Part shown: piece after piece, positions 22,244 through 42,000 of the stretch | Position numbering within the stretch: position 1 is the stretch's first letter | Layout: each line of letters opens with the position of its first letter | Origin: a bacterium | Lineage (GTDB): Bacteria; Bacillota_I; Bacilli_A; RFN20; CAG-288 | Length of the DNA: 64,000 nt | Direction of reading: 5' to 3' | Assembly (NCBI GenBank): GCA_963612025.1 | Contig: CAVDUB010000001.1 | Coordinates: 7,323 to 71,322, forward strand | Translations under genes and position numbers: made by a program | The notes under the pieces: model-generated | Database searches by the model: none | Seen by the model: only the letters and a program-made list of their open reading frames with translations | Told to the model about the DNA's origin: nothing

Positions 22244-22274
22244 AGTTCTATCTTATTTCCAATGCCTCTAAAAA

Positions 22275-23453
22275 TCAATCGATATTGATTCTGATCGTCA
22301 GATCGCTCAAAGGGTAAGTCGAACAGGCGTGGACATAATTGAAGTCCTTATCCGCGGCTCTTCGATAATCGGCCTGCTCATTGAGATAGAAATCTCCTTT
22401 TTCGATTTTTATTCTGCAGAAACCGCATTCTCCGGAGCGGCATCCGCTATGTGTCTTTATGCCCGCTCTTTCCAATGCAACAAGAATCGATTCATCGGCA
22501 TTCGCTCGAATCACATCCTCTGATATCCCTCTTTTGACAGTGATATGATAAGACTCATCCTTTTTCAGAATCGGATAATCCGGAAGTTTTCTTACATCGT
22601 CGACAGAGCCAGGAACTTCCATGCGGATTCTTCTTTCTGGAACATTGAGCTTTTTGAGTTCTTCGCGCATCGATTCATACATCTTATTCGGACCACAGAT
22701 AAAATATGTGCTATCCTCAGGAGAATATTCCCTGATGATGTCTGCCGTGATATATCCTTTTAGCCCGGTATAATCCGGATTGGCTCCGGAAAGAACATGG
22801 ACAATTTTGACCTGTGGGCATTCAAAATCCTTCAGTTCGTCTTTCAGAACGATGTCTTTTTCATCCACAGAGCCATAGAGAATGACAAGATGAATATCAA
22901 GACAACCATATTTCACTTCTTTGGCCATGGAGGCGAAAGGCGTAATCCCACTTCCTCCAGCAATGCAGACGACGTTTTTCGAATCACGCAGGGGCTCATA
23001 GAAGAATTGGCCAAGTCCAACCTCTGCCAAGAAAGAGTCTCCCACCTTGCTTGAGAGAAGAAAATCGGAAACAAAGCCATTCTTCGGCTTTTTCTTGATG
23101 GTGATTTCCACAATCGGCTTCTTGCCTCTTGTCTGGAAGGGGGCTGAAGATATTGTATAGGGTCGGCTAACGATGGAGGAGCCGATTTTCATCGTGAGAG
23201 TGAGATATTGTCCAGCCTTGAAATACGGAAAATGAGCATCTTCGCTTTCCAGTGTAATCGTCTTCGAGGAAAGAGAAGAATCCCTGATTTTGCTGATATG
23301 AACTGGAATCTGCCCTGGATGAAGAAGATGAGCAACTTCGTTGATGGGATCATTGTCATTGGACATGGGACTGGCTCTTTTGATGGCCTCTTTTCTTCTT
23401 TTAGTCACCTTGGTAGACCCAAGCACATCCTGGAAAAAAGATTTGATTTTCAT
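22275..23453 (-). CDS. FNR-type flavin reductase with C-terminal plant-type [2Fe-2S] ferredoxin domain
   Basis: RPYTISS (FAD-binding RxYS/T), GGSGITP (NAD(P)H binding), and the Cys cluster CRSGECGFC...C. Its ATGA overlaps the upstream gene. Confidence 0.75.
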   Translation of the reverse strand: MKIKSFFQDVLGSTKVTKRRKEAIKRASPMSNDNDPINEVAHLLHPGQIPVHISKIRDSSLSSKTITLESEDAHFPYFKAGQYLTLTMKIGSSIVSRPYTISSAPFQTRGKKPIVEITIKKKPKNGFVSDFLLSSKVGDSFLAEVGLGQFFYEPLRDSKNVVCIAGGSGITPFASMAKEVKYGCLDIHLVILYGSVDEKDIVLKDELKDFECPQVKIVHVLSGANPDYTGLKGYITADIIREYSPEDSTYFICGPNKMYESMREELKKLNVPERRIRMEVPGSVDDVRKLPDYPILKKDESYHITVKRGISEDVIRANADESILVALERAGIKTHSGCRSGECGFCRIKIEKGDFYLNEQADYRRAADKDFNYVHACSTYPLSDLTIRINID

Positions 23454-25003
23454 TTTTTCGATTCCTTCCTTTCTCTGTCCTGAAGAATATCATCGGCTGC
23501 CAATCTCCCATTGGCAATCGCCGGTCCCATCCCATCGCCCAAATCCGAGTGCGCCCCGGCGAAATAGAGCCCCGGAATGAAATGATCATAGCCATGAAGA
23601 AGCCTTCGAGCGATAATATGGTCATCCATAGAATGCTGATACCCATAGACACATCCTCGATATGCTCCAGTATAATGGGCAATCGTCACTGGAGACTCAA
23701 TGATGCATTCTACAATGTGGTCAGAAAGATTGACCCCGAGTCTTTTGCTTTCCATTTCAAGAAGATAACGAGCATTTTTTTCCTTGAGGGCCGCATAATT
23801 TTCCTCTGTCACATTTAGCCAACCATCGGGATAGGGGAGTGCGGTGATAGAATAAAGAGTATATCCTTCTTTTACACAATCCGGTTTCGCCTTATTCATA
23901 CAGATTGACGTGATATAGGAATAGTGCCCATGGGAATGGTAGTTCTTATCAATTTTATCAAAATCGAGACCATCCGGTGCATAGAATGTCGAATAATCTT
24001 GGATATGGAGTTCTTCAGGAGACTGGTCGAGAATAAGATTCACAGAAAAGCAGGACATGCCCAGAACCTTGGAATTGATCACCTTGCCAATTTTTTTCTT
24101 TTGGACAAGGGAAAGAGATTTCATGTTCGGATACATCTTATCTGGATAGGCTCCCGAAACAATATAGTCCGAATGGATTTCATGACCACGTATTTTCACC
24201 CCAACCGCTTTTCCATCAGAAAGGAGAATTTCATCGACATGCATACCAAATTCCGTTTTCACCCCCATCTCATGACATTTCTCAATCATCTTAAGCGACA
24301 TCTCATGAGAACATTTTGACGGAATATAGGAACCATAGCCAAGATAATCTGCCAGAAGATAGCAGAAAATGGAGGCGGGAAGATCATAAACGGAATTTCC
24401 AAGATAAATCCAATAGGCAGAAAGAATCCTTTGTGCTTTCTCCGGAAGAGAAAAATGGTCCATGACAATCTTTGCTGAGTGGCCGATAGTCCTTACAAAT
24501 TCAGGATATTTTTTCAAAAGGGAAAATGGACTATCCTTTTGAAGATTCGGATCGCTCATGGCAATATAGATTTTCCTGCAGAAATTCAAAAAAGAAAGAA
24601 TCTTCTGATAGCAGTCCTCTTCCTTAACGGCCTCTGCAATCTCTTTTGCCGTAAGAGAGTAGTCTCCATCCTCTCCGGCATGAATAAGAACATTCACCTC
24701 TTGATCCACATAGCGATAGGCTTCAGGAACACGAATCCACGAGATATCGATTCCCATATCCTGGAAAAACTTTCCAATCGAAAGGCAATTATTCTTTCCA
24801 ATCGACATCATCTCATGAAGGGTCGCTTCCATCTCGATACCATGACGAAGATAAGATGTCGCAAGTCCGCCAGGAAGATTGTGCTGTTCTAGAATGAGGA
24901 CGTCCTTGACGCCTTTCTTCTTCAGTTCAAGGGCACAGGCCATGCCGGCGAGCCCTGCGCCGATGATGATGACATCATATTTATTTTTGAAATAAGGTTC
25001 CAT
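23450..25003 (-). CDS. FAD-dependent oxidoreductase, CrtI superfamily (OxA)
   Basis: YDVIIIGAGLAGMACA..ILEQHNLPGG. ATG 25003 (MEPYFKNKYD) aligns with the paralog's N-terminus (MENRFYKPSYD), so it is preferred over GTG 25027. Confidence 0.75.
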   Translation of the reverse strand: MEPYFKNKYDVIIIGAGLAGMACALELKKKGVKDVLILEQHNLPGGLATSYLRHGIEMEATLHEMMSIGKNNCLSIGKFFQDMGIDISWIRVPEAYRYVDQEVNVLIHAGEDGDYSLTAKEIAEAVKEEDCYQKILSFLNFCRKIYIAMSDPNLQKDSPFSLLKKYPEFVRTIGHSAKIVMDHFSLPEKAQRILSAYWIYLGNSVYDLPASIFCYLLADYLGYGSYIPSKCSHEMSLKMIEKCHEMGVKTEFGMHVDEILLSDGKAVGVKIRGHEIHSDYIVSGAYPDKMYPNMKSLSLVQKKKIGKVINSKVLGMSCFSVNLILDQSPEELHIQDYSTFYAPDGLDFDKIDKNYHSHGHYSYITSICMNKAKPDCVKEGYTLYSITALPYPDGWLNVTEENYAALKEKNARYLLEMESKRLGVNLSDHIVECIIESPVTIAHYTGAYRGCVYGYQHSMDDHIIARRLLHGYDHFIPGLYFAGAHSDLGDGMGPAIANGRLAADDILQDRERKESKK

Positions 25004-25168
25004 GTGAAATGTTTGTTGTGCTTTCACACTATTTTATACCAAAATCATTTGATTTCTAGAATTTTGTCATATATTTCACTCTTTTATCCTTTTCGTCTTT
25101 CATTCATATAAAAAGACTATCAAGAATGAGAAAAAAAGAAGATCATTCCAGATAGCCTAATTTCATTT

Positions 25169-26050
25169 TTATGCCTGAATCGTCTTCTTGAGTTCCATGA
25201 CTCTCGACAAAGACATCTTGAGAAGGGCGGCAATCTTCTCCTCGGGGAAAGTTCCTTCTTTCAGAAGGGAAAGACAACATTCATCATGTGCTTCAGCCTT
25301 GCCTTCCTCTCTCCCTTCTTTTTTTCCCTCTTCTCGACCTTCTTCTTTTCCTTCCTCTCTTCCTTCCTCCTTACATTTGTCTGCAAGATCATCCTTCAGA
25401 TTCTAGATTCTTCCCATTTCCTCACTGACCTCGATGCCATTTATTTGACGATATTGTACCATAGCCTTCCTGATGGTGTCATCTGTTATTTTTGCAACGT
25501 CATGCTCTGCGAGATTGAAGAACAGCGCGACATGTGCTGTCTTTTGTCCTCTATATCTCATGTTGTAGAGCCTGACTTCCTCCTGACATTCCACCCTGTC
25601 GTTCGTATCCAAATTGACCGCCTGGAATCTCTTGCAGAGGACATCCTCACTGAAAGTGCAGTCCTCGATGAGGAATAAGACGATGACCTTGGGTATATGG
25701 CCATAGTCCTCTCCGCTCTTGTGGTTGACCTGCTTCAGTTTTTCGCCATCGTCGAATCCCCTGTTGACCAAGTCCTTCTCATGCACCTTCTGCATCTCGA
25801 TGTCATAGTGGACTCCATCTGTATCCAAGGCATGAATATGCAGCTTGGCCGCATGGGAATCAAGGCTCATCCCTGCGATCCATTCCCGGGTCTGGACGGT
25901 CTTCAAATAGATGTCATCCCTTTCCAATAAAACGCGAAGTACATGCTCAGCAAGTTCATTGTTCTTGTTGAACGCCATCGTCATGATGGCATCCGACATG
26001 AGACAGCATTTTTCAATCCTCCTTCGTTTCTCTTCTTCCGATAGTCCCAT
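25169..26050 (-). pseudogene. Rpn / PD-(D/E)XK nuclease-family transposase-like gene interrupted by an in-frame TAG
   Basis: The 215-aa N-part carries D..D.EMQ-type nuclease motifs. TAG lies at 25403..25405. The same frame continues for 77 codons through an EEGREEGKEEG linker and a helical tail to TAA at 25169..25171. Sampled lines have about 50% GC versus about 40% in neighbours. Confidence 0.6.
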
Positions 26051-26225: not shown

Positions 26226-29200
26226 TCAGAGATTTGCGTAATCGAATAGGAACGGATAAGATGTCACGTCATATTCGTCAGCAAGACATTTTGTCTTCTT
26301 GTCAGATCCCGTTGTCGTGACGGAATAGTCATTGATGAATGTTGTCAACTGCATAGAAGAGAAATCATAGACTCTCTTTGTCTTCGTCTCGATGCTCAAA
26401 GTAAGATCATCCTGACAATTCGTATCGATCAGATTGACAAGTGAATTCATTCGAGCCATGCCAGACTTCTGAGAAACATCCGTCTTGGAATCATAATAGC
26501 CCATATCAACGTAATTGCCCGTCGAGACGGCCTGAATGCCACCTTTGAGGGAGACCTTGGCCAATCCAGAGAGAACATTGAGTTCACAAGAAAGTTGAGC
26601 AGCATAGAATGGCGTCTTCTTCTCATCACCCTGGATTGTATAGTGATACAGTTTCAGATAGACATTATCGAAGGAAAGGAGGGAAATCGAATCATCACCC
26701 GAACCGACTTTGACAGAGAGAAGTTCATTCAGATTTAGGTTGAAGGAGAATTTCTGCTTTGATTCATTATAGAGAATCGATGTATTCTGATTATTCTCAT
26801 CATAGACATTGAACAGAGATGAGAAATCCGAATTGAGCTGGATAGACAAATCTGTCGTCAGAGAGGTCACATTCTCCGCTTTCGGAGTCGACGAGGAATC
26901 CGTTCCATCTTCCTTGTTTTTCAAGGCCTGATAGATATTTGCCATCAAGGTCTTTCCGGCAATTCTGTCATCGATGCCAAGGCCCTGTGAGACAAGATAG
27001 TAGAGAACATTGTTTTCGAATTCCTTTTTGGTCACACGATAGGCCGTCGAAGAAATCTGATTCACGACATTCTCATTTTCATCAAGCACAGCATCCGTCC
27101 TGGTATTGTCCATATAGACATAGTCGACATCTTCTTTGCTTGTGAAAGCGAATTCTGTTACATAATAGCCGGATTGCTGAATTGTCTGATTGCCGACCTT
27201 CAAGGCAAGATAGGTATTCACGTCGCCATTCTCATCGATATAGAGTGAAACATTGAAATTCAGATCGAAGCAGAGGGCATCCAAATTGATTGGCTGCTGG
27301 GAAGTGGAATTCTCAAACATAGTGAAATCCAGATTGAGATATCCCTGGAAGTGGAAATAGTTGTTCTCGGTGGTGTCAATCATCATCTTCGTGAGGTTCT
27401 TCAATCCATCCAAGGAAACGAATTTGCCCTTGTTGGCTTCATTATATTCCAAAACCGACGGGAGGTCTTCCTCGGAATAGGGGACTAGTTCGATACTACC
27501 CTTGCAGACTGTCTTTCCTTCCTTGGAAAGATCCACGGAAAGAGATGTCAGGATTGGATTTGCAGAATCTTCGTATTTGATCTTCAGAATGACCAAATCA
27601 CCTTCTTCCTGGATATTATAGAGTCTCTTATCGATCTTGATCGTGATTTCATTTTCGGTGTCAGAGAAATCCACAGAGTGGATATACGGATAAGAAAGAA
27701 GAAGACTTGGAGCTGAAAGAGAAATGACATCTTTTATCGGCATATTCGATGCGACAGAGGAAGATGTATCCAAGAGATTATTCAATAATGAAGTCTCGCT
27801 TGTCGAAGAAATGGTATTGACCATATCCTTGATGGTTGAGGAATGTAAGACAGCATGAAGATGCTCATTGTAGTCGGCAGTCAGTTCTCCATCACCTGAA
27901 GTGTCCTTTTGATACTTAAACTTCAGTTTCTGATCCGCTTGGGTCTTTTTCACACTCAACGTGTTGTCAATCGAAACGAATGGATGGGAAAGAACAAGGC
28001 TACCAGCAAATTTAGGATCATCTTTCACACTGAGATCCCAATAGGCAGAACCGGTAAGAGTCAAAGCACTTCCATAGGAGAGAACACTTCCATTCTCATC
28101 CATGGTCGGGTCTTTCTTATATTCCGCATTGACCTTGATACCATATTTCTCAATTTGGTTTCCAAGGTTGTAGAAGGAATCGACAATCGTATTGAAATCC
28201 TCAATCTTCTGATATTTTGCGCAAGCTTCTTCGTCAAGTTGGAAGGAAGAGAAAGAAGAAGAGAAATTCAGAGTGAAGGAGAAATCCTGATTGGATGAAA
28301 TCTTCGTCGAGATGGACAAACTCTTCATGCTCTTATCTTTCGTCGAAAGAAGAATCGTGATATTGCTTAGATTCTTTCCAATCAGGGAATCCGTTTTGAA
28401 AATCTTGTCGATGTTCAAGACAAGGGAGAGATATCCGCCATTCTCATCTTCATTCGAGGTGAGTGTAAAGACATTATCAAATCCGACAAGCGAACCATTT
28501 TGGACTTTTTTGATGGCATTCTGGAAATCCTCATTCATGCCAAGGAAATCCAAGACTTTGGAGACCTGATCGAAGGAAACAGAAACCGAGGAATCCGTTT
28601 TCTTATCCAAAACAGTCATCATCTTTCCGAGACTCACATTCTCAATCTCATTTTTGAAGACCGTATTCGATGGATTGTTTCCATAGATGGTGTCATAACC
28701 GAAGTAGAGATTATGATCCTGATAATTCATATTCAGATTGTGAACGCTCTCCCCACAGGAAGCCTTCATGGAAAGGACATAATCGCCTTCTGTCACCTTA
28801 TCAAGAATTGTGCCTTTGTTCGTCACAGAGGAAAGATCAGCGCCGATCAAACCACTGGCCGAAATCAAAGAATAGTTGTTATTCGTTCCATCATTGATCT
28901 TATCATTGTAGGTCAAGGTATAGTCTGCGAGGAATTTCTCATTTTGAGCGAAATTCGAAATCGAGGAGAAAATATCGCAGACCGGAGCAAGATTCTGATA
29001 TTGACTCTTTTCTTCATCACTGATGCTCAATTCCTTCTTCGTTTCTTCCGTAGATGCTTTCGGAGTCAAGGAAAGAGAAATGGTCGTCGTCTCTTTCTTT
29101 CCAGAGGTCGAATCCGTCGAAGAGAAGGACAATCCTTCGATTGTGATTTTCTCAATCTTCTTTTCGGAGGAACATTTGATCTTCAAGACGATGGCTCCAT

Positions 29201-30662
29201 CCGTCAAGCCAAGATAGCTTCCATCGATGGAAAGAGAGAAACTCGATGTGGATGAATCATAGTCAAAATAGGTGTTTTCCTGCTCAAGAAGTCCTTGGAT
29301 CTGTGTCATATCGCCGCCTTTGAGTTTATCGATATCCAAAGTGCCTAAGACAGTTCCTGTTTCCGAAGCAAAGACCTCAATCAAAGGAGAAGAGGTAATC
29401 TTCGTGATATAGGAGAACATTTCAGAAATCTTTGTATCCGAGATTCTCCCTTTAATGAGTTCATTCAGTTTCAGGTAGAGATTCCTGTCGATGAATTTCA
29501 CATCCAATGAATTCAGATTCTCATTAGCTGCACTTAGGTGGTCCAAAGAGAGTGAATAATTATTCTTCTTATAATCCATCGCAAGCAATCCATTCACATC
29601 GAAAGAGGATTGTACGCTGCTTGAAGAAGCATCCGAAACGCTCTTTTCGACATGAACTCCGATGGAGACATCCGAGTCATTGCCTAAAATATCATGAATC
29701 GTCGAGAAAAGAGACGTATTGGCGTCTGTGACATTGGAATAGGTCGAAATCTGTTCGGCCGTCAATGTCTTATAGCTGCTGACTTCCTTCAATTCGAGCT
29801 GCCCATCCAATGAAAGAGACAGGTTCTTTTCAAAAGAAGAGGATTCATCCTTTCTTGAATAGATGGCGATATCTTCCTTTGTTTGGAGTTTTTTCAGAGA
29901 ATAGGTGTCTTTTGTCGCATAAAGGGTCAAATTCAGTTTTCCAGCATCACTTCCGATTTTTGTATTTCCGATGGTGATTTCCGGAATTGAGATATCGAAA
30001 TGAACCAAGTCGCTTCCGGTATCTTCAATGGAGTCCGTCGCTGTGATTTCACCAGCCATATCCTGGACTTTGGAGACAATCGAAGAAAGGTCAAGAGAGG
30101 ATGTCGAGGCCGCATCATTCGTCTTGACAAGGCCAAGAGCCTTGAAGATTTCCATCAGATCTGAAAGATTCTGAGGAATATCGAAACAGAAATTTCGATT
30201 TTTGAATGTGACGTAGCAGGCCTCATTCTCCTCCACACGCAAAGAAAGCGTCTGGTCGAGTCTCTTGATGCTATTGGCTTCATCCGTTGAGGACTTTCCA
30301 TAAAGAACCTGGATATCCGTTGCGACATTGACAACGCTCGTATTGAGTTTGCTTAAATCAACATTGAGAGAATTCAGTTTTAGGTCAATCGATTCCTTCC
30401 CAACAGGTTTGATTGACAAGGAAAGATTTCCAGAAGAAATCTCCTTGGAATTCAGCAAGGAATTCAAAGTCTTAGAAAGATTGGTTTCTTCCTTATCCTG
30501 ATTGTTGTCATCGATGTCTGGAATCGTAATGTCATCATCGCCGACATCCTGATTCTGCTTGGTGGCATGCATCATCATATAGACGGTGGAGCCCGATGCA
30601 GAAGCACTGAAGATACCTAACAGAGTCAGTGCTCCAATTCTTTTCCATGTATTTTTTTTCAT
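26226..30662 (-). CDS. Giant membrane-anchored beta-rich protein G1 (1,478 aa), unknown family
   Basis: It has an N-terminal hydrophobic helix (IGALTLLGIFSASASG). It is coupled to A1 through a GGAGG in the A1 tail followed by TAG-aat-ATG. It is collinear with G2. Confidence 0.85.
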   Translation of the reverse strand: MKKNTWKRIGALTLLGIFSASASGSTVYMMMHATKQNQDVGDDDITIPDIDDNNQDKEETNLSKTLNSLLNSKEISSGNLSLSIKPVGKESIDLKLNSLNVDLSKLNTSVVNVATDIQVLYGKSSTDEANSIKRLDQTLSLRVEENEACYVTFKNRNFCFDIPQNLSDLMEIFKALGLVKTNDAASTSSLDLSSIVSKVQDMAGEITATDSIEDTGSDLVHFDISIPEITIGNTKIGSDAGKLNLTLYATKDTYSLKKLQTKEDIAIYSRKDESSSFEKNLSLSLDGQLELKEVSSYKTLTAEQISTYSNVTDANTSLFSTIHDILGNDSDVSIGVHVEKSVSDASSSSVQSSFDVNGLLAMDYKKNNYSLSLDHLSAANENLNSLDVKFIDRNLYLKLNELIKGRISDTKISEMFSYITKITSSPLIEVFASETGTVLGTLDIDKLKGGDMTQIQGLLEQENTYFDYDSSTSSFSLSIDGSYLGLTDGAIVLKIKCSSEKKIEKITIEGLSFSSTDSTSGKKETTTISLSLTPKASTEETKKELSISDEEKSQYQNLAPVCDIFSSISNFAQNEKFLADYTLTYNDKINDGTNNNYSLISASGLIGADLSSVTNKGTILDKVTEGDYVLSMKASCGESVHNLNMNYQDHNLYFGYDTIYGNNPSNTVFKNEIENVSLGKMMTVLDKKTDSSVSVSFDQVSKVLDFLGMNEDFQNAIKKVQNGSLVGFDNVFTLTSNEDENGGYLSLVLNIDKIFKTDSLIGKNLSNITILLSTKDKSMKSLSISTKISSNQDFSFTLNFSSSFSSFQLDEEACAKYQKIEDFNTIVDSFYNLGNQIEKYGIKVNAEYKKDPTMDENGSVLSYGSALTLTGSAYWDLSVKDDPKFAGSLVLSHPFVSIDNTLSVKKTQADQKLKFKYQKDTSGDGELTADYNEHLHAVLHSSTIKDMVNTISSTSETSLLNNLLDTSSSVASNMPIKDVISLSAPSLLLSYPYIHSVDFSDTENEITIKIDKRLYNIQEEGDLVILKIKYEDSANPILTSLSVDLSKEGKTVCKGSIELVPYSEEDLPSVLEYNEANKGKFVSLDGLKNLTKMMIDTTENNYFHFQGYLNLDFTMFENSTSQQPINLDALCFDLNFNVSLYIDENGDVNTYLALKVGNQTIQQSGYYVTEFAFTSKEDVDYVYMDNTRTDAVLDENENVVNQISSTAYRVTKKEFENNVLYYLVSQGLGIDDRIAGKTLMANIYQALKNKEDGTDSSSTPKAENVTSLTTDLSIQLNSDFSSLFNVYDENNQNTSILYNESKQKFSFNLNLNELLSVKVGSGDDSISLLSFDNVYLKLYHYTIQGDEKKTPFYAAQLSCELNVLSGLAKVSLKGGIQAVSTGNYVDMGYYDSKTDVSQKSGMARMNSLVNLIDTNCQDDLTLSIETKTKRVYDFSSMQLTTFINDYSVTTTGSDKKTKCLADEYDVTSYPFLFDYANL

Positions 30663-30665
30663 ATT

Positions 30666-31913
30666 CTAAGCCTCCTGAGGAAAAAGTTGATACCCTGCAA
30701 AATTGTCTGGGTCATCACTTTTGGGAATGTTGACTTCCACACCGGAGAAGACATTGCTCTCCGAGCGGAAATAATACTGATACATATCGCTTGAAGTCAT
30801 CGAACTGATGGGTCCGACGGTTGCGGAATATTCGTCCTTGAAATACGTCGAGACGAGCTGAAGTTCTTCATCCAAAGTGAATTCGAGATGGGTGAGAGAG
30901 AACGATGGTCTTGAATTGAGACCACCGGTTGTTCGCATCTGAACAGAATAATACGTATTGCCGATGGATATTTTCTTTTTTTCTTCATCACTCGCCGACT
31001 TTCGGTCTTTGTCCGTATAGAGATCAAGAGAAATCAGATAATTGTTCTCCTTTTTTTCAAAGGAGGAATTCTTGACACTGCTGGGTCCGATAAGATAGAT
31101 GACAACCCCATTGACATGGTGTTTGCTTTTCTCCAACGAAGAATCGTAGACGCTCTTATCAGAGGTGAGATAACGATCCGAAATCGGGGTCGCTTCCGTC
31201 ACATGGGATGAATCGGAGACCGTCGTGCAGTAATACGATCCCTGAAGAAGTTTTCCATAGCTTTGGATATATTCGTCATAGGTATATTCCTTCGGCGTGT
31301 TGTTTTTCTTCCAATCATCTGGAACAGACTCGAGATAGCCGAGAACCTTTCCATCAAGATTATCATAGAAGCGGTTGGCAGTCTTGACAACGCTTGAAGA
31401 AGAGACATTCTGGTTATAGATTCCTTCCGGCGTGGTATAGTTGCAAGAAACGATGTTCTGAGTCACGGAGACACCCGCATTGGCAACAACCGTTGCCTTG
31501 CCGATGGTTAATGCATATTTGCTTTCACCTTGCATAGACAATGCATAATTCACGAGTTGGTAGAATTTTCCTTCATAGTCTTTTTCCAATGTGTGATTGG
31601 AAATCGATTTCTGGATTTCCTCTTTGGAGGGAACATATCCCTCAAAGCCGGCACCGGCCAACGTGGCTGATTCCGGATTCTGCCAGCGATAGAGGAGATA
31701 ACCGCCTCCTCCACCAACAAGAATCGAAACAGAGACAACAATTGCAACAGGAATCCAGTTTTTCTTCTTCGTTTCCGGTCTTGCCTTGATTTTTTTTCGA
31801 TTCTTTTCTTTTATGCGAGCCCCCTCTTTTTCGGGTTGTTCCTTTGGTTTACAAACCAAAACTTGGCTCTCTATTTCTTCTTTATTTTTCTCTTCCATTA
31901 TTTTTAACCACAT
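30666..31913 (-). CDS. Single-pass membrane protein A1 (partner of G1), unknown family
   Basis: Lys-rich N-terminus, TM helix WIPVAIVVSVSILVGGGGGYLLY, and an extracytoplasmic domain of about 330 aa that is homologous to A2. The start could instead be the second ATG at 31898. Confidence 0.75.
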   Translation of the reverse strand: MWLKIMEEKNKEEIESQVLVCKPKEQPEKEGARIKEKNRKKIKARPETKKKNWIPVAIVVSVSILVGGGGGYLLYRWQNPESATLAGAGFEGYVPSKEEIQKSISNHTLEKDYEGKFYQLVNYALSMQGESKYALTIGKATVVANAGVSVTQNIVSCNYTTPEGIYNQNVSSSSVVKTANRFYDNLDGKVLGYLESVPDDWKKNNTPKEYTYDEYIQSYGKLLQGSYYCTTVSDSSHVTEATPISDRYLTSDKSVYDSSLEKSKHHVNGVVIYLIGPSSVKNSSFEKKENNYLISLDLYTDKDRKSASDEEKKKISIGNTYYSVQMRTTGGLNSRPSFSLTHLEFTLDEELQLVSTYFKDEYSATVGPISSMTSSDMYQYYFRSESNVFSGVEVNIPKSDDPDNFAGYQLFPQEA

Positions 31914-32077
31914 AAATATAAAATGAAAACAAACAAAAGTAAAATATTTCTTTTGTAAACATTCTAACTTTGAAACAATTTGGCAAAAAAACTATTTTTA
32001 GCTCGGATTATTGGACAAAAATATTGTTTTCTTTACCGAAAAAAATGTGTATACTTTCTCACGAGCGCAATAGACAA

Positions 32078-35000
32078 ATGAAAAAGAATGCAATTCGAGG
32101 ACTTTTCTTCACCCTTTTCCTGATTTCGCCTTTTCAGGCCTCTTTTGTCGACCAAAAAAATGCCATTCAGAAAGAGCAATCCAACAGTCAGGAAAACATT
32201 CTTCCCAGCATCGATAAGAACCAAAATGACAAAATCGACAATTCTCTTTCAACAGCTCTCAATCGTTTCTTCTCGGCTAAGCAAATTCAGATGAACACGC
32301 TGAAAATCAGCATCACGCCGGATATCTCTTCTGTCAATGATGTCTTGACACTGGAAATGAAAGATCTTGACTTAGACCTAAGCGGAAGCAATACCCTCTC
32401 ATTCAATTTCTATACAAACCTAAAAGTATCCTATAAAGGATTGGAAATCAGCCTCGATTGTGAATATAAAGCGGATGACTTCCTCTATCTTTCCTCGACA
32501 AAGGGAAACGCCATCAAGACAGATCTTCCCATGACATTTAATGACCTGTTCAAACTACTCAATCAGTTAGGGCTGAGTATCAATTCCACGACGGAAAATG
32601 GAAATATTTCTTTATATTCTCTATTTTCTTCTCTGCAGAAAGCGAGTGCAAATGCAATCGAAAATACCACATCTGATTCACAGAATTCCTTTCTTGTCTC
32701 TCTTCCTGATTTTACAATCGGAACGTCGAGCATTAAAAATGTCTCACTTCTTCTTTTCTCTGACAAGGACGAAAATCCAACCTCCATCAGGACAAAAGAC
32801 AGCATTCTTCTTTCCTCGACAGAAAAGAATATCACATCATCCATTTCCCTTGAAGGAACCATCAAAAAAGTAAGAGAAATCTCGACCTATACAAGCCACT
32901 CTTCCTCCTCTACGGATATCACTGCACAGGATTCTTCCATCATTTCCTTACTTTCGAACATCTTTTCGGGAAAATATTCCTCGGAGAGTGAAAGCGAAGA
33001 GAAGAAGCAATTCTCCATCGACATGAGTGCGAATCTATCCAAGAAAGTCGACAACTCCACAACCAAGACTTCCTATCTGAATGGAAGACTGGATTGCGAT
33101 ATCACCGACGTATTCTTGGATGACAACATCGGCGAATATGCCTTGAATCTCACCCAGAATGAGAAGGAGACTTTCGATGGAAAGACGTTGAATGATATCG
33201 GCTTGTACTTCAAGAAAAACACAAGCTACCTCTCCTTAAATAATTTCTTCAAAGGACGAATCGACAACAGCAAACTAAAGGATACTTTCAACACAATCAG
33301 CAAACTGTTAAATGATTTTACAATTGAAAAAATCGATGAAAACCTCAATATCATCTTCAAGACGGTCGATAAAAGCACCATTGAGAAGATCAAGAATGGG
33401 GATTTATCTCCTCTCAACAGCATCCTGAAAGCGTATTACTTCTCTTCCGCTTCCTTTTCCATCACCCTCGATGGGACGGCACTTTCTTTAAAGGATGATC
33501 TGACCCTATCGATTTCTTTCAATGATCTTGGAGAAGAAGGATATGAAGTGAAGAATATATCCCTCTCCAAATTGAATTTGGGTGATATAGTCTTGGAAAA
33601 TCTTACTTTTTCGATTTCCAATTTTACTTCCATTGCCAAGCCAAATGAGGAAGACTATGACTCCTATACAGAAAGCTTGGATCTCTTTTCGTCCTTGGCC
33701 GATCTCGTCAATAAGAAGAGGCTCAGCGTGGACTATTCCCTGATCTTCACCGATCAACAGAATGTCACCTTCAATGGTGAAGGAGAAATCAGTGTCGATG
33801 TCTCAAGAGCCGGTGTCATTGATCAGAATACACTCTATACATCCCTAGGCGACTACTACCTTTCCTTGAATCTTCCTTCCTCAAAGAATGATGCAGAAAG
33901 CATCATCGGACAAGGAATCGAGATGTACTATTCTGGGATAGATAAAAACCTTTATTTTGGCTATGGATATGATCAGGATAGTGACTATGTCTTCCGCAAC
34001 TCCTTAAGCGATGCCGATATTCGTTCCATGTATGCCCTAATTGATTCCAAAGTCCAGGATGATTCTTCCAATACATCCTCAAGCATCTTCTCGATGTCGG
34101 ATATTCTTCAGACACTATCGAACAGCGAAGCCTTCAAAAACCTGAAGAATGATTTATCCAATCATCTCTCCCTGAAAGGACTCGATGGCGTCATTTCCTT
34201 CTCGAGTGATGAACAAGGATGGATTACACTCACGCTTGACCCATCCTCCTTCCTCGCGGGAAGCAAATACGAAAGCAATACTGAAAAATTCTCTTTGACC
34301 CTATCCGAAGAAAATGAGATTCTATCTTTGTCCATCAAAGGAAAAGCAAATGGATGCCCTATCGCCTTCAGCATGAATTTCTCCGATCAGATTGTCGACC
34401 ATTCCTCTTCATTCAATGTGACGGACTATCCACCAATCACGAATTTCGAGGCCTTGTCAGAATCTTTATTTTCTCTCCCAACCGACTTAAAGCAGTTCGA
34501 CTTATCCTTAAACGGGACACTTCAGAATGAAGGAGACAGTGTTCCTTCCCTGACCATCAAGGAAGGCTCTGGTCTCAGCGCCGATCTGACAGGCGAAAAG
34601 AAGGACATCTCAGGTGAAGTCACTTTGACCCACAAGGACATCAATGATTCCACGAAAGCATCGACGGATCAGAAACTCGAATTCGCTCTTCAGGATTTGG
34701 ATGGACAGGTCGAAAACAATTCCCATAACCTCGTCAACAGAAGCCAATTCACTTTGGAATACAATGACAACATGCATGTCAAGATGGAAAACAGCGACCT
34801 CTATTCCATCATGAATACCATCAACGGTGTCGACAGCGATTCAAATCTTCTCTTCCGCTATCTGAAATTCATGAATTCCGTCGTCGAGACAAGCGGTTCT
34901 CCCTTGATGGATGTCATCAATGGAAAAGCCTTGTCCACATCAGGAATCTTTGCCTATAAATACCTCAAATCCTTATCCTTCCAGGATGGAAGTATCACAC

Positions 35001-36331
35001 TCACTTTGGATCCAAAACTCGTAAAGAGCAATTCTCTTGAGGGAAGCGAAGCCATTCTTTCCATAGAATATGACACCACAAAAAAGAAGGTCACAGGCGC
35101 ATCCATCAAGGCAAAATATATCCACCTTGTCGATGAAGAGACGAAGACAACCAACATCGACATTTCTCTTTCCCTCCAGACCGGAAATGAAAAAAAATAT
35201 GCTCGAACACTGACAAGCGATACGTCCAAGACAAAAGAAGACAAGACGATGCTCGAATATGTCGACAGTGTCACATCCTCTTCCTTTGTCGATATCGATG
35301 GATTCAAGATTCTTCTGGAATGTACAATCGATACCACAGAAAACAACTTCTTTGAATTGAGTGGAACTTTAAGCTTAGATGTCAAGGGAAAAATCATATT
35401 CGAAATTTCAATCGAAAATGTAATTGCCAATGCCTATGCTCAAATCTATGTCGAAAACGAAACGGCTTATGCCTATTTGAGAATCAATGCCTTCAACAAG
35501 AAAGTCACGGACAGCGGCAACAGAGTCACAGAATATTTCATCAAAGAAAAAGAAGTCCTTGTCAACCAGACAACGATATCAAGCGAAACACAGAAAACAG
35601 GATCTCTTTTCAATCGAAAGACAGAATATCGCTACACTGCTTCTTCAACCTACTACAAGACCACAAGCGAAAACATCGTCAAGAATATCGCCTACTATAT
35701 CCTCGACTATTCGATGAATATCGGAAGCGTCACAACCATTGGAATCAAGTCCGGAAACATCGCCCTCAACGAAATCTATAAAGCGATGAACTCCAGTGAA
35801 AGTTCTGCTTCGATAAGCAACGACTTCTCCACACTCATAAAGGCGGATTCCACTTCCTATGATTCTTCCTCCAACACTTTCGTTCTTGATCTCAACCTCA
35901 AGGATTTCCTCAATATCTCTCCTGCCTCTATCAGCTCCTTCAAACTGACCATCCAGCATGAGGATGAAAAGACAGTCAACGGCAAAGCCTATAAGCCGCT
36001 GAAATCTCTTTCTATCGATGGGAAATTAACTGTTTCCGTTCTGACGGTCAATATCACTTCCTCTTCGAACGTCAACACATTCACACTCAGCCGTCTAGAA
36101 AAGGTCTCCGCCAGTACGGCAAAGACCTATATGAAACGATATTATGACTATTGGAACCTTGTCTATGACGAACTTGGTGATGACATCTATGAAATCAGTT
36201 CGATAGAGTCGGCAGGTTCGCCAAACGACAACGGGAAATCAAAAACGAAATCTGTCACAAGCGATTGGTCTTCGAGTTCATCCTATCCGGATTCCTTGAA
36301 GAACAACAGCTACTTCTGCTATTGGGAATAG
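32078..36331 (+). CDS. Giant membrane-anchored/secreted beta-rich protein G2 (1,417 aa), paralog of G1
   Basis: The start was moved to MKKNAIRGLFFTLFLISPFQA (signal or anchor). Homology to G1 is collinear along the full length. No clear SD is present. Confidence 0.8.
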   Translation: MKKNAIRGLFFTLFLISPFQASFVDQKNAIQKEQSNSQENILPSIDKNQNDKIDNSLSTALNRFFSAKQIQMNTLKISITPDISSVNDVLTLEMKDLDLDLSGSNTLSFNFYTNLKVSYKGLEISLDCEYKADDFLYLSSTKGNAIKTDLPMTFNDLFKLLNQLGLSINSTTENGNISLYSLFSSLQKASANAIENTTSDSQNSFLVSLPDFTIGTSSIKNVSLLLFSDKDENPTSIRTKDSILLSSTEKNITSSISLEGTIKKVREISTYTSHSSSSTDITAQDSSIISLLSNIFSGKYSSESESEEKKQFSIDMSANLSKKVDNSTTKTSYLNGRLDCDITDVFLDDNIGEYALNLTQNEKETFDGKTLNDIGLYFKKNTSYLSLNNFFKGRIDNSKLKDTFNTISKLLNDFTIEKIDENLNIIFKTVDKSTIEKIKNGDLSPLNSILKAYYFSSASFSITLDGTALSLKDDLTLSISFNDLGEEGYEVKNISLSKLNLGDIVLENLTFSISNFTSIAKPNEEDYDSYTESLDLFSSLADLVNKKRLSVDYSLIFTDQQNVTFNGEGEISVDVSRAGVIDQNTLYTSLGDYYLSLNLPSSKNDAESIIGQGIEMYYSGIDKNLYFGYGYDQDSDYVFRNSLSDADIRSMYALIDSKVQDDSSNTSSSIFSMSDILQTLSNSEAFKNLKNDLSNHLSLKGLDGVISFSSDEQGWITLTLDPSSFLAGSKYESNTEKFSLTLSEENEILSLSIKGKANGCPIAFSMNFSDQIVDHSSSFNVTDYPPITNFEALSESLFSLPTDLKQFDLSLNGTLQNEGDSVPSLTIKEGSGLSADLTGEKKDISGEVTLTHKDINDSTKASTDQKLEFALQDLDGQVENNSHNLVNRSQFTLEYNDNMHVKMENSDLYSIMNTINGVDSDSNLLFRYLKFMNSVVETSGSPLMDVINGKALSTSGIFAYKYLKSLSFQDGSITLTLDPKLVKSNSLEGSEAILSIEYDTTKKKVTGASIKAKYIHLVDEETKTTNIDISLSLQTGNEKKYARTLTSDTSKTKEDKTMLEYVDSVTSSSFVDIDGFKILLECTIDTTENNFFELSGTLSLDVKGKIIFEISIENVIANAYAQIYVENETAYAYLRINAFNKKVTDSGNRVTEYFIKEKEVLVNQTTISSETQKTGSLFNRKTEYRYTASSTYYKTTSENIVKNIAYYILDYSMNIGSVTTIGIKSGNIALNEIYKAMNSSESSASISNDFSTLIKADSTSYDSSSNTFVLDLNLKDFLNISPASISSFKLTIQHEDEKTVNGKAYKPLKSLSIDGKLTVSVLTVNITSSSNVNTFTLSRLEKVSASTAKTYMKRYYDYWNLVYDELGDDIYEISSIESAGSPNDNGKSKTKSVTSDWSSSSSYPDSLKNNSYFCYWE

Positions 36332-36364
36332 ACCCTTGAGGCCTATTCCTTTTTGGGTTATCAC

Positions 36365-37267
36365 TTATTTATCAAGGAAAGCAAGAATATCCTTGACGAC
36401 CTTCTCTCTTTCTGTTTCATTGAGAATCTCATGACGCATATTGGGATAGAGTCTCAATGTGACATCCTTGACACCGAGCGAACGATACATCTTTTCGAGG
36501 GATTTCGGTCCCTTTGCAAAAGCACCCACTGGGTCTTCAGTTCCAGCAACAATGAGAATCTTCTCATTCTTGGATATCTTGGCAAGGTTCTTCTTTTTAT
36601 AGAGTTCTTTCAGACCCGTCATGAAGCCAAGGAAAAAGCCATGGGTATTGTAGTGTCCGCAATATGGATCCGCATTGTAATTCTTGACATTTTCCTTGTT
36701 GAAGGAAAGCCAATCATTGTCATCCTCTCGATTCTTCACCGATTTGATATAAGGACCCAAGGACATCTTGGCCATCAATTTATCCTCTTTGTCGAAATTC
36801 TTCTTGTTGGTCGTCATTTTGGAAAGACAATATCCCATTTTGATCGCAAGCTTATTGTTCTTTCCGTTGCTCGACATGATGATGATCTTATCGACGGTAT
36901 CAGGATAATTTTCCAAATAGGCCTGCATGGCAAAGCTTCCCATGGAATGTCCCATCAGATAGACAGGCTTCTGATCCTTTCTCAGCTCCTGCACCTTATT
37001 GTTCAACGCCTTGAGCATCATTTTCCATGCGCCCAAAGGCCATTTTTCCTGATCGTCAGGATTCGGAGCATTTTCACCCTGACCAAAATGATCCAGAACT
37101 GAAACTGAATAGCCTTGAGCATTGAGTTCCTTTGCGAAGGTCTCATAGCGGGAAGAATGCTCATTCATACCCGTGATGGCAAGAAGATGTGCTTTCGGAT
37201 TCTCGATGAGGTAATCATTTCCTTTAAGAGAAAATTCATCATTGATTTTGACTGTGAATATGGACAT
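36365..37267 (-). CDS. Alpha/beta hydrolase (lysophospholipase / monoacylglycerol-lipase-like)
   Basis: GHSMGS nucleophile elbow and an HG-type oxyanion region (ITGMNEHS). The 300-aa size matches the Hydrolase_4 type. Confidence 0.75.
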   Translation of the reverse strand: MSIFTVKINDEFSLKGNDYLIENPKAHLLAITGMNEHSSRYETFAKELNAQGYSVSVLDHFGQGENAPNPDDQEKWPLGAWKMMLKALNNKVQELRKDQKPVYLMGHSMGSFAMQAYLENYPDTVDKIIIMSSNGKNNKLAIKMGYCLSKMTTNKKNFDKEDKLMAKMSLGPYIKSVKNREDDNDWLSFNKENVKNYNADPYCGHYNTHGFFLGFMTGLKELYKKKNLAKISKNEKILIVAGTEDPVGAFAKGPKSLEKMYRSLGVKDVTLRLYPNMRHEILNETEREKVVKDILAFLDK

Positions 37268-37352
37268 TGTTCATATCTCCTTCTTATTCTTTTTATCATA
37301 TCATATTTTTTCTTTTGCTTGGCCAGAAAAAGTACAATGGTATAATAAATAT

Positions 37353-38141
37353 ATGAACGTAAAAGATAATATAATTCAGAATCTCTTAACCGACCTTCAT
37401 TTCTATCTTGCCCAGTATGAACTCTATCTTCATTCCGTAACGATTTCCAATGTCTCATTGATGGGGATTGAAGCGACGCAGAAAACATATTCTGACGCCT
37501 TCTATTTGGAAGAGAAAAGCATGATCACCACACTCTCTAATTCTTCTTTCGTCCATCTAGCCAGTTTCTCCATCGATGACTATCATGGACACATCAAAGA
37601 ATACCAAGGAAAAGACAAGAAGGACCTCCTAAACAAAAATCCAAAGGAATACGATTATCAGACCTACATCCAAATGTATGGAAAGCTCAACCAGAAGAAA
37701 TATCCAGTCCTTTCCATGCCAAGGAAAAAGGAAGAGATTCTCAATGAAATCTATCAAGAAAATGAAAAATCCATCGAGATCCAGAATCTTTTTCCAGAAG
37801 ATATCATCCAAGATGGAGTTAAGTCCATCCATAAGGAAAAAAAGACTTATTCTCTTATTCTAAATCCAAAAATCACTCATTGCCATCTTTCAGTATCCAT
37901 AAAAAATCGAGGAAAGTTCGATTCCTTCCCCGACTTCAAGGTAGCCAGTATGGATTTTTCATTCGGAAAAGAAATGCTATTCATTCATTCCCTTATGGAA
38001 TATCGAATCCGCTATGGATTCATGAACCTTCCCATCAAGCAGGAAACCAACACCGAGATTGTTATTGGAAAGCAAAAAAAATTCCTTATCGAAGATAAGG
38101 AAATCATCGTCTCTGAGACAGCGCCATTCTTCAGCATGTAA
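37353..38141 (+). CDS. A2, paralog of the A1 ectodomain, unknown family
   Basis: PKEYDYQTYIQMYGKL aligns with A1 PKEYTYDEYIQSYGKL, and a C-terminal block is shared. The promoter TTGGCC-16-TGgTATAAT ends 6 nt before ATG 37353. An upstream TTG/ATG extension (37242/37260) would add a hydrophobic N-terminus. Confidence 0.6.
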   Translation: MNVKDNIIQNLLTDLHFYLAQYELYLHSVTISNVSLMGIEATQKTYSDAFYLEEKSMITTLSNSSFVHLASFSIDDYHGHIKEYQGKDKKDLLNKNPKEYDYQTYIQMYGKLNQKKYPVLSMPRKKEEILNEIYQENEKSIEIQNLFPEDIIQDGVKSIHKEKKTYSLILNPKITHCHLSVSIKNRGKFDSFPDFKVASMDFSFGKEMLFIHSLMEYRIRYGFMNLPIKQETNTEIVIGKQKKFLIEDKEIIVSETAPFFSM

Positions 38142-39074: not shown

Positions 39075-42000
39075 TTATCGATTCTGAATCGCGTCGATTG
39101 GCTTCTTGTTGGCAATCTTGGTGACTGGAAGAATCGAGGAGATGAAACTTGTCAAGAGAGCAACACCAAACAGCAACAATACAATCAGAAGACTTGGATT
39201 CATAAGGTTGAAGGATAAGTTGGCCGCTTCCTTGAACCCCTTATTCAGGAGGTAGGAGAGAATAAAGGTGATGATGGTGGAGAAGACAAAGTTGAACATC
39301 GCGATGATGAAGGCTTCGGAATAGAAAATCTTGAAGACATCGCTTCTCTTGGCGCCGACTGCCCTGAGAATACCGATTTCTCTTTTCTTGTTGTTGATGG
39401 ACACCGAGATGAAGTTATAGAAAAGAAGCATGCTGAATATGGCAAGAACAATACCGACATAGAGGAAGACCTGGGTCAGTATGGCAATCATATTGGCATA
39501 GCTCTCAGTTGTCGAAACTTCGCTGTTGCCAATTGCAACTCTCCATGAACCGACTGGCGCCGATTCGTAATCATCCATGACCTTCTTCTTTTTGAAGTAG
39601 AAATCAAGGAATTTATCCAGATTCTGATTGGATACGCCGACATAACCAGAGGTGATGGTTTCATTACTGCTGATTCCCATCTCTTTTTCCTTGGCTTTGA
39701 GAACTTCTGCATCGCTCTTCGAGATGGACAAATTCATATAATCGAGGTCAAAGTCAACACCGACAACACGGAAGGTTGGGAAAGAAAGACTATATCTTTC
39801 GTCTTTGGATGCGGAAGGGACAATGCTCAGATTCGACGATGAGAAATCATAATTCTGGAAGATTTCTTTCTGCTTGTTCTTATATTCATTCTGATATTGT
39901 TGATAATAGGAAGTGTTATAGAAAAACATGTTGAAGACTTCCTTCTTGATATCATCCGTCACTTCGTCGACTTTCTGCTGCTTTTTTAATTCCTCAATCG
40001 CTTCGGCATAATAGGAGATATTCTTATATTTCTGATAGGCTTCCTCATAGTATTGCGAAATATATTCATTTCGCAATTGATTTTCAATCTCACTGATCTG
40101 CTGAGAGAGGAAGATTGTGGATAGGCTCGGATATTTTTTTGCCAATTCCTTCTGATATTCTGAAATGGCATTCAGATAATACTTGTAATAAGAAGAGGCA
40201 GTATCATACTGGTTATTGAAATACATATTGACATACGAACTGAACAGCTGATATTTCTGTTCATTGGTCGCATTCTGATAATCTTCATCCCTATAGACAT
40301 AATTACCAGTCTCCGAATCATAAGAACCAATCGCATTCACTGGATATTCAACATATAGATCTGTTCCTTCATTGATGGCTTTCGCTTTTGCAAAATCATT
40401 CTGATAGAAATCTTCATACTTATCATTGACAGTCTTATAACAGGCTGCCTGCTTGACAAGCTGTTGAAGATTTCCGCGTTGTTCATTCGTGAAGGAATAA
40501 TCACTTCCTCCATAATTTTGCGGTGCACCGGTGAAGGTGAAACTATATGTATCTTCATCCGAGGAATCAGACGACTTATTTAAAAATTCAAGGAAGAAGT
40601 TCGGTGAAACGAGTGTCTCTTCTGAAGAAAGGCTCGTCTTATTCTTATCGAAGAAATAAGTATTTGCATGATTGGCATAATAGGCAACAGAAAGATTGAA
40701 TTTTCCCATATCCGGTTGAAGAGTTGTACTGATGATAATATCGCTATCCTTCGTCTCCGAATTTCCTGAACTGCCATAGAAATAGGTCGCATGGATTGAA
40801 GCGTTATTTTTCAATTCCATGAGAGCCTGATAATCCGGATTGTTCCAGTCAAGTTTCTCCGTCGAATTGCGATATTTGAGATACTTTTCCGGGAGTTTCG
40901 TATCGATGATGCCGGTGACCTTCTTTGTCGTCGATGAAGAATAGGAAGAATAATTCATGACACTGAATTCCATGCCTAAGACATCCTCAGGCTTCTGGAT
41001 GCTATTATCTTCTGTCAAATCCTGCAAAGAATAGTAGGTATAAAGAGAAAGACAGATTTCATTCTCGTTTGCCGGAAGAGTTCCGCATGTCAAGGAAAAG
41101 CCTAAGTCGTCCATCATCTGCTGGCTTGCTTCCATGGCATAGTTGACTCCAGTCACATGGAAAGAATCCCCGACCGAGCTTAGATTCAGATTTAAATGAG
41201 AATATTTGGAGATATAAACCTGTGCACCGGTTTCCTTCTTGATTTCAGCAATTCTTTCTTCGCTCAATCCTTCCATTTGCTGATTATCCGCTGTTTTCTC
41301 ATTATAGCGTAGGGAAAGAACATTGATCTTGTTATCCTGGATGACATTCTTGACCGCACTCTTCTCAGAGAACATGGCCAGTGTAGCACTGGTTCCGAAC
41401 AATGAGAAGGATATGGTCGACAAGAAAATCGTGAAAACCAAACGGAATGGCTTTACTCTCATGGATTTTCCACCCATTCTGAAGGCATGACCTAAGGAAA
41501 AGCGGCTCTTGACGACGTCGAAGGAATCATTTCCCATCTGAATTTTGTTCGGATCAGTGGAAATGAATTCCTGCCTGTTTCCATCCTTATCGATTCTTGC
41601 CGCTTCGCACAATGCTTCATTGGCATGGCTATCGGCTGTGATATAGATATCGCTCTTGGCGTTTTCAATGGCTTTGTTGATCAAAGGAAGATCTTCCGCA
41701 GTCAGAGGGCGATTCTTCTCGATGCGGATCATATTGTCGCCAATCAAGGAAAGACCATCATTCGCCTTGACGCTTTCCACATTTGTCTTGGTGATATCCG
41801 AAATGACCTTTCCATCCTTCAGTTCGATGACGCGGTCACCGAAATGTTCCGCAAAGTCACGGTCGTGTGAAACAATGACGACCAACTTCGTCTTCGAAAG
41901 CTTCTTCAGGGTTTCGAAGACCTGTTTTCCGGTATTGCTATCCAATGCACCGGTCGGTTCATCGCCGAAGATGATCTTCGGTTCCTTGACCAAGGCTCTT

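Follow-up and report, generated by a model that had tools for sequence, protein, structure and literature searches.

A conserved envelope gene pair encoding a membrane-anchored protein and a giant tandem-repeat partner, both with predicted LolA/LprG-like folds, in uncultured gut and rumen bacteria

The 64,000-nucleotide stretch of bacterial DNA analysed here (contig CAVDUB010000001.1, positions 7,323 to 71,322; hereafter the window) encodes two kinds of envelope protein, which we call A and G. On the minus strand lie the genes of A1 (30666–31913), a 415-residue protein predicted to be a type II (N-in), single-pass membrane protein, and of G1 (26226–30662), an extracytoplasmic protein of 1478 residues. 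The plus strand carries G2 (32078–36331), a 1417-residue paralogue of G1, and A2 (37353–38141), a 262-residue, anchor-less and lineage-restricted paralogue of the β-domain of A1. All four are present in the list of open reading frames (ORFs), and the genes and their paralogies are real. We find that an A gene followed by a G gene forms a conserved module, which is very probably, as a matter of anatomy, an unannotated tandem, membrane-anchored variant of the LolA/LprG-fold proteins with two or three components. The LolA-like fold of A and G, assigned from structure models, is itself probable, and we give a likelihood of slightly less than one half (about 0.45) to the proposal that the module functions as a membrane-anchored extracytoplasmic relay for hydrophobic cargo.

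The conservation of the module was examined in 37 loci (L001–L038 except L009, whose genes duplicate those of L008) that were gathered in three independent ways: (i) as the loci of G homologues, (ii) by a metagenome scan with an alignment of A only, and (iii) through P0202, a member of a distant A subfamily. In each of the 37, the gene after A in the same orientation is a G homologue, which either overlaps A or begins after a gap of at most 32 nucleotides (nt). The initial annotation of this DNA had made its proposal depend on such adjacency in related genomes, and the two genes are neighbours in every locus examined. The G downstream of A measures 1316–1551 residues wherever a locus offers enough sequence, and truncated loci contain the start of a G that is recognized by a hidden Markov model of the family. 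The scan that used A alone yielded 22 loci, with A at 28–59% identity. The P0202 subfamily is only ~25% identical to A1 and still has G-like giants next door, which at 1317 and 1225 residues are remote but collinear homologues of G (hhalign, 96–99%). When neighbouring genes were clustered, A and G turned out to be the only ones that recur across lineages. ATP-binding cassette (ABC) ATPases near other loci are of unrelated types and occur at the frequency expected by chance; the module has no dedicated ATPase that is conserved along with it.

The locus was originally described as an A+G pair that occurs twice. The paralogies underlying this description stand: G1 and G2 are collinear at 26% identity over ~1350 residues (composition-adjusted BLASTP, E = 9e-63), residues 131–377 of A1 align to A2 at 22% identity (BLASTP, E = 4e-9), and the peptide matches quoted at the time are all present. 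The pairing itself does not hold, however, owing to the properties of A2. This protein has neither a transmembrane (TM) segment nor a signal peptide, as is also the case for its orthologues of 250–251 residues, and in L006 the A2 ORF opens at this start, with a stop codon excluding an N-terminal extension. A2 was found only in L001/2 and L006–8; it is missing from L011, which has the hydrolase gene (see below) and G2, from L003, L005 and L028–L033, and from all more distant loci with two G genes. It is parted from G2 by an opposite-strand gene and changes fast, being 31% identical to its L006 orthologue compared to 64% for A1 (the hydrolase retains 77%, and G1 and G2 52% each). Judged by its sequence, A2 is a lineage-specific, anchor-less and fast-evolving derivative of the A1 ectodomain. 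Just 7 nt ahead of the A2 ATG lies the end of a TG-extended site resembling −10 and −35 elements; a transcript initiated there would be leaderless.

A second G is common, occurring in many lineages. Its gene diverges from the first in the window, L001/2, L005, L006–9 and L011, stands in tandem with it in L003/4 and L028–32, and follows a helix-turn-helix gene in L033–37; the G2 orthologues of L001, L002, L006, L008 and L011 hold the same divergent position. In the clade of the window, G1 and G2 fall into distinct groups of orthologues, and the two G copies of L003 and of L033 are each other's best match, from which we infer that the duplication of G either recurred or was homogenized. The conserved, ancestral module is A–G(–G) and not two A+G pairs.

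Several of the compared records have peculiarities of their own. L001 (CAVCCX010000020.1) is a 92%-identical copy of the locus in a record titled 'Bacteroides uniformis', but the genes of this metagenome-assembled genome (MAG) are of the Firmicute type, and the title is almost certainly an error of labelling or binning. In L002 (MAG CAVKZJ01, 10001–14934), two overlapping ORFs (914 and 731 residues) take the place of a single G1 orthologue, which reflects a frameshift or pseudogene or else an assembly error. An alternative genetic code was contemplated because the protein P0013 fails to translate exactly from L003, and was rejected: the mismatch, located at a stop close to the C-terminal end, amounts to one residue, every G ORF is open under table 11, and the difference would most simply be one between a cluster representative and the contig copy.

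The junction of A1 and G1 reads GGAGGCT-TAG-AAT-ATG, so that GGAGG precedes the A1 stop codon and G1 starts 3 nt further on. This junction had been noted at the outset, and it is indeed present; G1 is predicted from it to be translationally coupled to A1. Since methionine 6 of A1 is nearly invariant in the orthologue alignment, the true start of A1 is probably at 31898. The A1–G1 operon and G2 diverge from an A/T-rich intergenic region (31914–32077, both strands) that contains consensus promoter-like hexamers, the promoter-like sites at 31943–31915 (−) and 31970–31998 (+) being consensus matches only. No convincing operator or regulatory palindrome was seen in this region, and DNA-level tandem repeats were likewise not convincing.

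A1 has a Lys/Arg-rich N-terminus followed by a single strongly hydrophobic segment, an arrangement that points to an N-in, C-out topology. Its TM helix (31680–31757, −; residues 53–78) has a hydropathy peak at residues 52–57, is helical in the model, and holds the motif G67-x-x-x-G71, whose two glycines show a conservation of at least 90% among 24 close as well as among 97 distant sequences. The ectodomain (30669–31631, −; residues 95–415, ~320 residues) is predicted by AlphaFold2 (AF2) and Foldseek to be a LolA/LprG-like open barrel. The AF2 model, calculated with a 24-sequence alignment, has a mean predicted local distance difference test score (pLDDT) of 83.6, mostly above 90 in the ectodomain, and a predicted TM-score (pTM) of 0.78. 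It displays three N-terminal helices and then ~14 strands with inserted helices. The best Foldseek match in the Protein Data Bank (PDB) is LprG with and without phosphatidylinositol mannoside (3mh8, 3mha; E = 4e-5, probability 1.0). Other top matches are Porphyromonas gingivalis LolA and LolA3 (8cgm, 9tp6), DUF1329, a lipoprotein-sorting domain and Staphylococcus aureus SAOUHSC_02783; altogether, 7 of the top 12 belong to the LolA/LolB/LprG superfamily or are annotated as LolA-like. The modelled likeness of the A1 ectodomain to the LolA/LprG open barrel would be a resemblance at the level of the fold and not proof of homology. Conserved in A are two polar motifs, NQNVSSSSxVxTANRFYD and YYSVQMRTTGGLxSRPxF.

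The G protein next to A has, in 13 lineages, an N-terminal run of 19–29 residues (median 23) that is free of charged residues and of N, Q, H and P and that ends in a conserved [small]-S/T-G-x-x-x-Y motif. In G1, this putative signal-anchor comprises residues 9–31 (30570–30638, −; IGALTLLGIFSASASGSTVYMMM) and carries the motif. The length of the run and the conservation of the motif fit an uncleaved signal-anchor and not a cleaved signal peptide. In the second G, the hydrophobic segment is shorter, in some cases with a lipobox (LLVSC, LSAC, MISC) and in others with a site resembling that of signal peptidase I; G2 of the window has a short signal-peptide-like N-terminus (FQA↓S). A single N-terminal hydrophobic helix was originally ascribed to both G1 and G2; it is of TM length in the G1 type only, and is replaced in the G2 type by a short signal-peptide-like segment or a lipobox. 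The small-residue motifs in the TM helices of A and G1 suggest that the two helices pack against each other.

G had been thought to contain no known repeat. When a 30-sequence G alignment was cut at boundaries suggested by the structure model and the pieces were compared by hhalign, four tandem homologous modules of ~260 residues were found. In G1 these β-rich modules, each ending in helices, are D1–D4 (27363–30485, −; residues 60–330, 331–575, 576–835 and 836–1100). The hhalign probabilities are 98.8% for D2–D3 (E = 8e-17), 97.3% for D2–D4, 95.8% for D3–D4, 87% for D1–D3 and 78% for D1–D2, with the significant alignments spanning 194–231 columns. In a 21-sequence alignment of the repeats, a Y..YN..(K/H) strand precedes an amphipathic helix, and the last helix has the pattern Y/F..(D/S)....L. 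As no repeat is seen at the DNA level, the modules are ancient. The C-terminal domain D5 (26229–27362, −; residues 1101–1478) is not related to them (hhalign probability below 3% against D1–D4). It carries 12 of the 40 invariant residues of G, its invariant columns including G1107, Y1151, E1170, T1187, Y1221, Y1222, D1279, S1281 and R1404. An IDTTENN motif marks the D4/D5 boundary (approximately residues 1095–1100), with the invariant T1097 at the end of D4. In sum, G combines four repeats with a C-terminal domain of a different kind.

In the AF2 model of G1, blocks of five to seven long strands followed by helices recur along the chain. The only PDB structures that Foldseek matched to it with a probability of at least 0.97 are Yersinia pestis LolA, the Escherichia coli complex of LolA with a lipoprotein, SAOUHSC_02783 and YwiB (4ki3 and 7z6w are among the LolA entries). 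LolA, the LolA–lipoprotein complex and SAOUHSC_02783 reach 0.99–1.0 over 248–270 columns. The high-probability matches span 223–270 columns each, or about one module, and whole-chain matches are meaningless.

Searches by sequence returned no described family for either protein. Scans of G1, G2, A1 and A2 against Pfam, NCBIfam and PHROG gave nothing meaningful; A1 drew sub-cut-off matches to ETRAMP, holin and CD1107 that are confined to its K-rich tail and TM segment. No match to the A-family, G-family or G-repeat profile exists in the PDB sequence set. The LolA, LolB, LppX_LprAFG, DUF1329 and MucB_RseB profiles were unmatched by A1, A2, G1, G2 and 97 divergent A-family members, and the latter, scanned one by one, produced no match to any Pfam family. 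Profile–profile comparison detected no homology between A and G, nor between the A ectodomain and any single G domain. Homologues sharing words in a set of 5.8 billion proteins number 14 for G1 and 22 for A1, all of them unnamed or called 'hypothetical protein', and the source of one is a rumen MAG that bears the label 'Bacilli bacterium'. With the A-family profile, an exhaustive HMMER search found 352 clusters at E ≤ 1e-3, 156 at ≤ 1e-10 and 45 at ≤ 1e-30. Distant members of ~300–330 residues retain the K-rich tail, the TM helix with its nearly invariant GxxxG, and the ectodomain motifs, and a further protein search with the 97-member A alignment added at least one further remote member, P0202. 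Members of the family come only from uncultured organisms of the gut and rumen, and one of these organisms carries the label Bacilli bacterium. A literature search for tandem LolA-like giant proteins in monoderms returned nothing relevant. The proposal of an unrecognized envelope system has thus been borne out, in that a conserved A–G module exists to which no Pfam or NCBIfam family corresponds.

We propose the following model for this module. A would be a type II membrane protein that presents a LolA/LprG-like open β-barrel outside the membrane. G1, co-translated with A, would be held in the membrane by its uncleaved N-terminal helix and would project four LolA-like modules and the C-terminal domain, and the two proteins would associate through their conserved small-residue TM helices. 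G2, the second copy, would be released or lipid-anchored and would join A–G1. The three proteins would bind lipids, glycolipids, sterols or lipoproteins by their acyl or other hydrophobic part, and this cargo would move between the cytoplasmic membrane and the exterior (the cell surface or the surroundings), either inward (scavenging) or outward (surface delivery). The cytoplasmic hydrolase encoded within the cluster of one clade is compatible with lipid scavenging, although it is not conserved. A more elaborate version, in which G1 and G2 would be docked via A to form a multi-module conduit that carries lipids, sterols or the acyl chains of lipoproteins and glycolipids over the wall zone of a monoderm, we regard as rather doubtful; such a conduit would be a bridge-like system evolved independently of Lol, Lpt, Mla/MCE, AsmA/RBG (where RBG stands for repeating β-groove) and P116.

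The module resembles several known systems in part. Like A, LprG and LppX (family LppX_LprAFG) are membrane-tethered and extracytoplasmic, and LprG, an open β-barrel that is the best structural match of A1, carries acylated glycolipids outward (PMC12873929). Unlike them, A has no sequence similarity to the family, is tethered by a TM helix and not via a lipobox, measures ~320 residues instead of ~200, is partnered by a giant tandem-repeat protein and not by a major facilitator superfamily pump, and belongs to a Bacilli-type host as opposed to a mycomembrane bacterium. LolA and LolB, with their incomplete β-barrel closed by helices, provide the only high-probability matches of the G model besides YwiB and the LolA-like SAOUHSC_02783. 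LolA, however, is a soluble, single-domain periplasmic shuttle of ~180 residues that is fed by LolCDE in diderms, whereas the modules of G are concatenated four times, anchored to the membrane, found in presumed monoderms and unmatched by the Pfam LolA family. The likeness does not extend to the rest of the Lol pathway, as conservation of the A–G module does not include the neighbouring MacB-type ABC transporter.

For the scavenging version of the model, the closest functional analogy is P116 of Mycoplasma pneumoniae, a large, N-terminally anchored surface protein from a reduced-genome member of the Bacilli/Mollicutes radiation, which extracts and delivers lipids without ATP (PMC10023570, PMC12487902). 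P116 has a previously unseen fold of its own, forms a homodimer and lacks an A-type partner; it is absent both from the top 50 listed Foldseek PDB matches of A and G and from the PDB sequence-profile searches.

A number of observations weigh against the carrier function and the fold on which it is built. The fold matches of A and G are weak (TM-score 0.25–0.44, root-mean-square deviation 9–10 Å): for A1, the TM-score of the superposition is 0.25 when referred to the query and 0.44 when referred to the target, and target-relative scores for the LolA/LprG-type matches of A1 and G1 are only 0.34–0.44. The AF2 model of G1 (residues 279–1478, 15 sequences) is only moderate, with a pLDDT of 67.6 and a pTM of 0.43, at which the predicted inter-domain geometry is unreliable. 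Sequence profiles provide no link of A or G to LolA, LprG or any other family. The conserved residues of A are largely polar and would suit a protein or glycan interface equally well. Neither the hydrolase nor the MacB-like transporter is conserved with the module, and the host envelope is presumed to be of the monoderm type. Finally, by analogy to GerS of Clostridioides difficile, which uses its LolA-like fold to activate the amidase CwlD (bioRxiv 10.1101/2025.01.13.632879), such a fold need not imply lipid binding.

The main rival explanation, which we consider unlikely but deserving of attention, is that of a structural or adhesive surface complex, in which G1 and G2 would be long modular fibrils or a coat (an adhesin, a surface-layer-like or a wall-organizing protein), A would be a docking or assembly factor, and the LolA-like barrels would serve as scaffolds or as glycan- or protein-binding modules instead of lipid carriers. 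The size of G, its composition rich in S, T, N, D and K, and its tandem β-modules are typical of surface proteins, and an expanded surface proteome is normal here, given that three other large, paralogous and unannotated lipoproteins are encoded in the window. The repeated duplication of G and its rapid change, at 52% identity between genomes whose hydrolases retain 77%, point the same way, as do the polar conserved residues of A and the precedent of GerS, where the same fold has a protein–protein function. Adhesin and wall-binding domains are nevertheless absent, Pfam and NCBIfam having detected no LPXTG, SLH, LysM, Ig-like, Cna-B or other domain of this kind. A strict 1:1 tie to a membrane partner that is LolA-like and has conserved motifs in its TM helix would also be unusual for adhesins, whose tips usually vary, whereas the C-terminal domain is the most conserved part of G; and the structures matched with high probability are those of carriers and not of adhesins. 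The GerS precedent, in which a LolA-like envelope protein of a Firmicute bears no sequence similarity to LolA, could alternatively be taken literally, with the LolA-like domains of A and G binding, allosterically controlling or positioning enzymes of the cell wall or membrane. The polar surface motifs conserved in A would agree with such a role. We consider it improbable, since only A and G are common to the lineages and neither an amidase nor any other enzyme partner is conserved nearby, and since four tandem modules and a second giant copy far exceed the needs of a regulator, GerS itself being a small, single-domain, amidase-activating lipoprotein.

The initial annotation inferred a resemblance to AsmA/TamB/YhdP-type bridge-like lipid-transfer proteins or to giant surface proteins of the Mollicutes type. 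On the first of these readings, G would be an RBG bridge protein that reaches an outer membrane through the periplasm. The architecture invites this comparison: an N-terminal TM anchor (of ~23 uncharged residues in the G that follows A) precedes more than 1,300 β-rich residues, units of 5–7 long strands and then helices recur in the model, and there is a dedicated partner. Membership in this group is very unlikely, though, and we reject it on profile and structure grounds, with which the probable host type agrees. G1 and G2 match none of the AsmA, AsmA_2 and DUF490 profiles in Pfam and NCBIfam even at E = 0.1, and the 50 best Foldseek PDB matches listed for the G1 model, itself of moderate confidence, include no TamB, Vps13, ATG2 or other RBG structure. 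The LolA-like repeat of ~260 residues, with 11–13 strands and several helices, is not the five-strand RBG unit. The only named source labels one host genome 'Bacilli bacterium', for which reason an outer membrane is not expected, and the window contains a tetrahydrofolate (THF) riboswitch; an Omp85 or POTRA gene appears in none of the locus listings. What survives of the idea is a loose architectural analogy and, in spirit, the lipid-transfer function, as folds of hydrophobic-ligand carriers are predicted. The possibility that the module is cargo of a mobile element or phage, for instance a receptor-binding or exclusion protein, is more remote still. It would be in keeping with the Rpn/PD-(D/E)XK transposase-like gene just downstream of G1 (25403–26050) and with a group II intron reverse transcriptase near the L005 locus. 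The proteins have no PHROG matches, however, no structural match of meaningful probability in BFVD and, in the case of A, no relatives among 2.9 million viral contigs; moreover, GC content is flat over the whole module region, and the flanks, syntenic between genomes, are ordinary chromosomal housekeeping genes (FAD oxidoreductases, UvrC, MutS2, an RNase HII-family protein, ZnuABC and ECF S-components).

Two neighbours of the module had been pointed out, namely a lysophospholipase-like hydrolase and a MacB/FtsX-type transporter with a large ectodomain. Both genes are present by Pfam. The α/β hydrolase (36365–37267, −; 300 residues, Pfam Hydrolase_4, E = 5.5e-43) is of the monoacylglycerol-lipase/lysophospholipase type, has no signal peptide and is predicted to be cytoplasmic; it stands beside G2 only in the closest relatives (L001, L002, L006–L009 and L011). 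The fused ABC-FtsX protein of the MacB type (39075–42659, −; 1194 residues) has, between its ABC and FtsX domains, an unannotated extracytoplasmic stretch of several hundred residues, homologues of which occur only in L001, L002, L006 and L007; beside G1 in L008, the gene calls show no more than fragments of ABC and FtsX. This restriction to close relatives rules out both genes as parts of the conserved system. A tRNA-Pro(GGG) gene (42663–42739, −) lies just upstream of the ABC-FtsX gene. The gene at 25403–26050 (−) matches the Rpn/PD-(D/E)XK_2 'putative transposase' family with scores below the family cut-offs, and no counterpart is called beside G1 in L006 or L008.

Other features of the window are distinct from the module. 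Three paralogous proteins of ~1050 residues (6836–10048, −; 13295–16519, +; 16638–19763, +) are 36–43% identical to one another and have lipoprotein signal peptides (LSMIGC, LSLIGC, LLYGC), long Ser-rich linkers and no Pfam family. They are unrelated to G or A, and with them the window encodes a second family of large, unannotated surface proteins. The THF riboswitch (19904–19994, +; 68.7 bits) lies directly upstream of an S-component gene of the energy-coupling factor (ECF) type (20034–20615), which probably encodes a folate-family transporter. Two flavin adenine dinucleotide (FAD) oxidoreductases resembling amine oxidases and phytoene desaturases, with a mutual identity of 46%, flank a Fer2/FAD/NAD reductase at 20633–25027 (−); this trio is syntenic in L006, and a third, distant copy of the oxidoreductase is located at 1316–2884 (+). 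At 50949–55496 (−), a 650-residue AAA_5 (dynein/McrB-like) ATPase is encoded between unannotated genes for 560 and 310 residues, a cluster that may be an McrBC-like restriction or defence module. A 325-residue trigger-factor-like protein (60737–61714, +) has FKBP and Trigger_C domains and lacks the N-terminal ribosome-binding domain.

To our knowledge, little has been described, apart from a few cases such as LprG and P116, of the traffic of hydrophobic molecules among membrane, wall zone and surroundings in gut Bacilli of the Gram-positive type and with reduced genomes. The A–G module is a concrete and testable candidate for such a function: its two genes form a strictly conserved pair, the family comprises at least 352 clusters, and these include a recurrent lineage of the human gut. 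Even if the carrier idea fails, the module still provides a family of giant envelope proteins and a tandem-repeat domain of ~260 residues, both of them new, as well as a new family of membrane-anchored LolA-like proteins, for which profile models are now possible.

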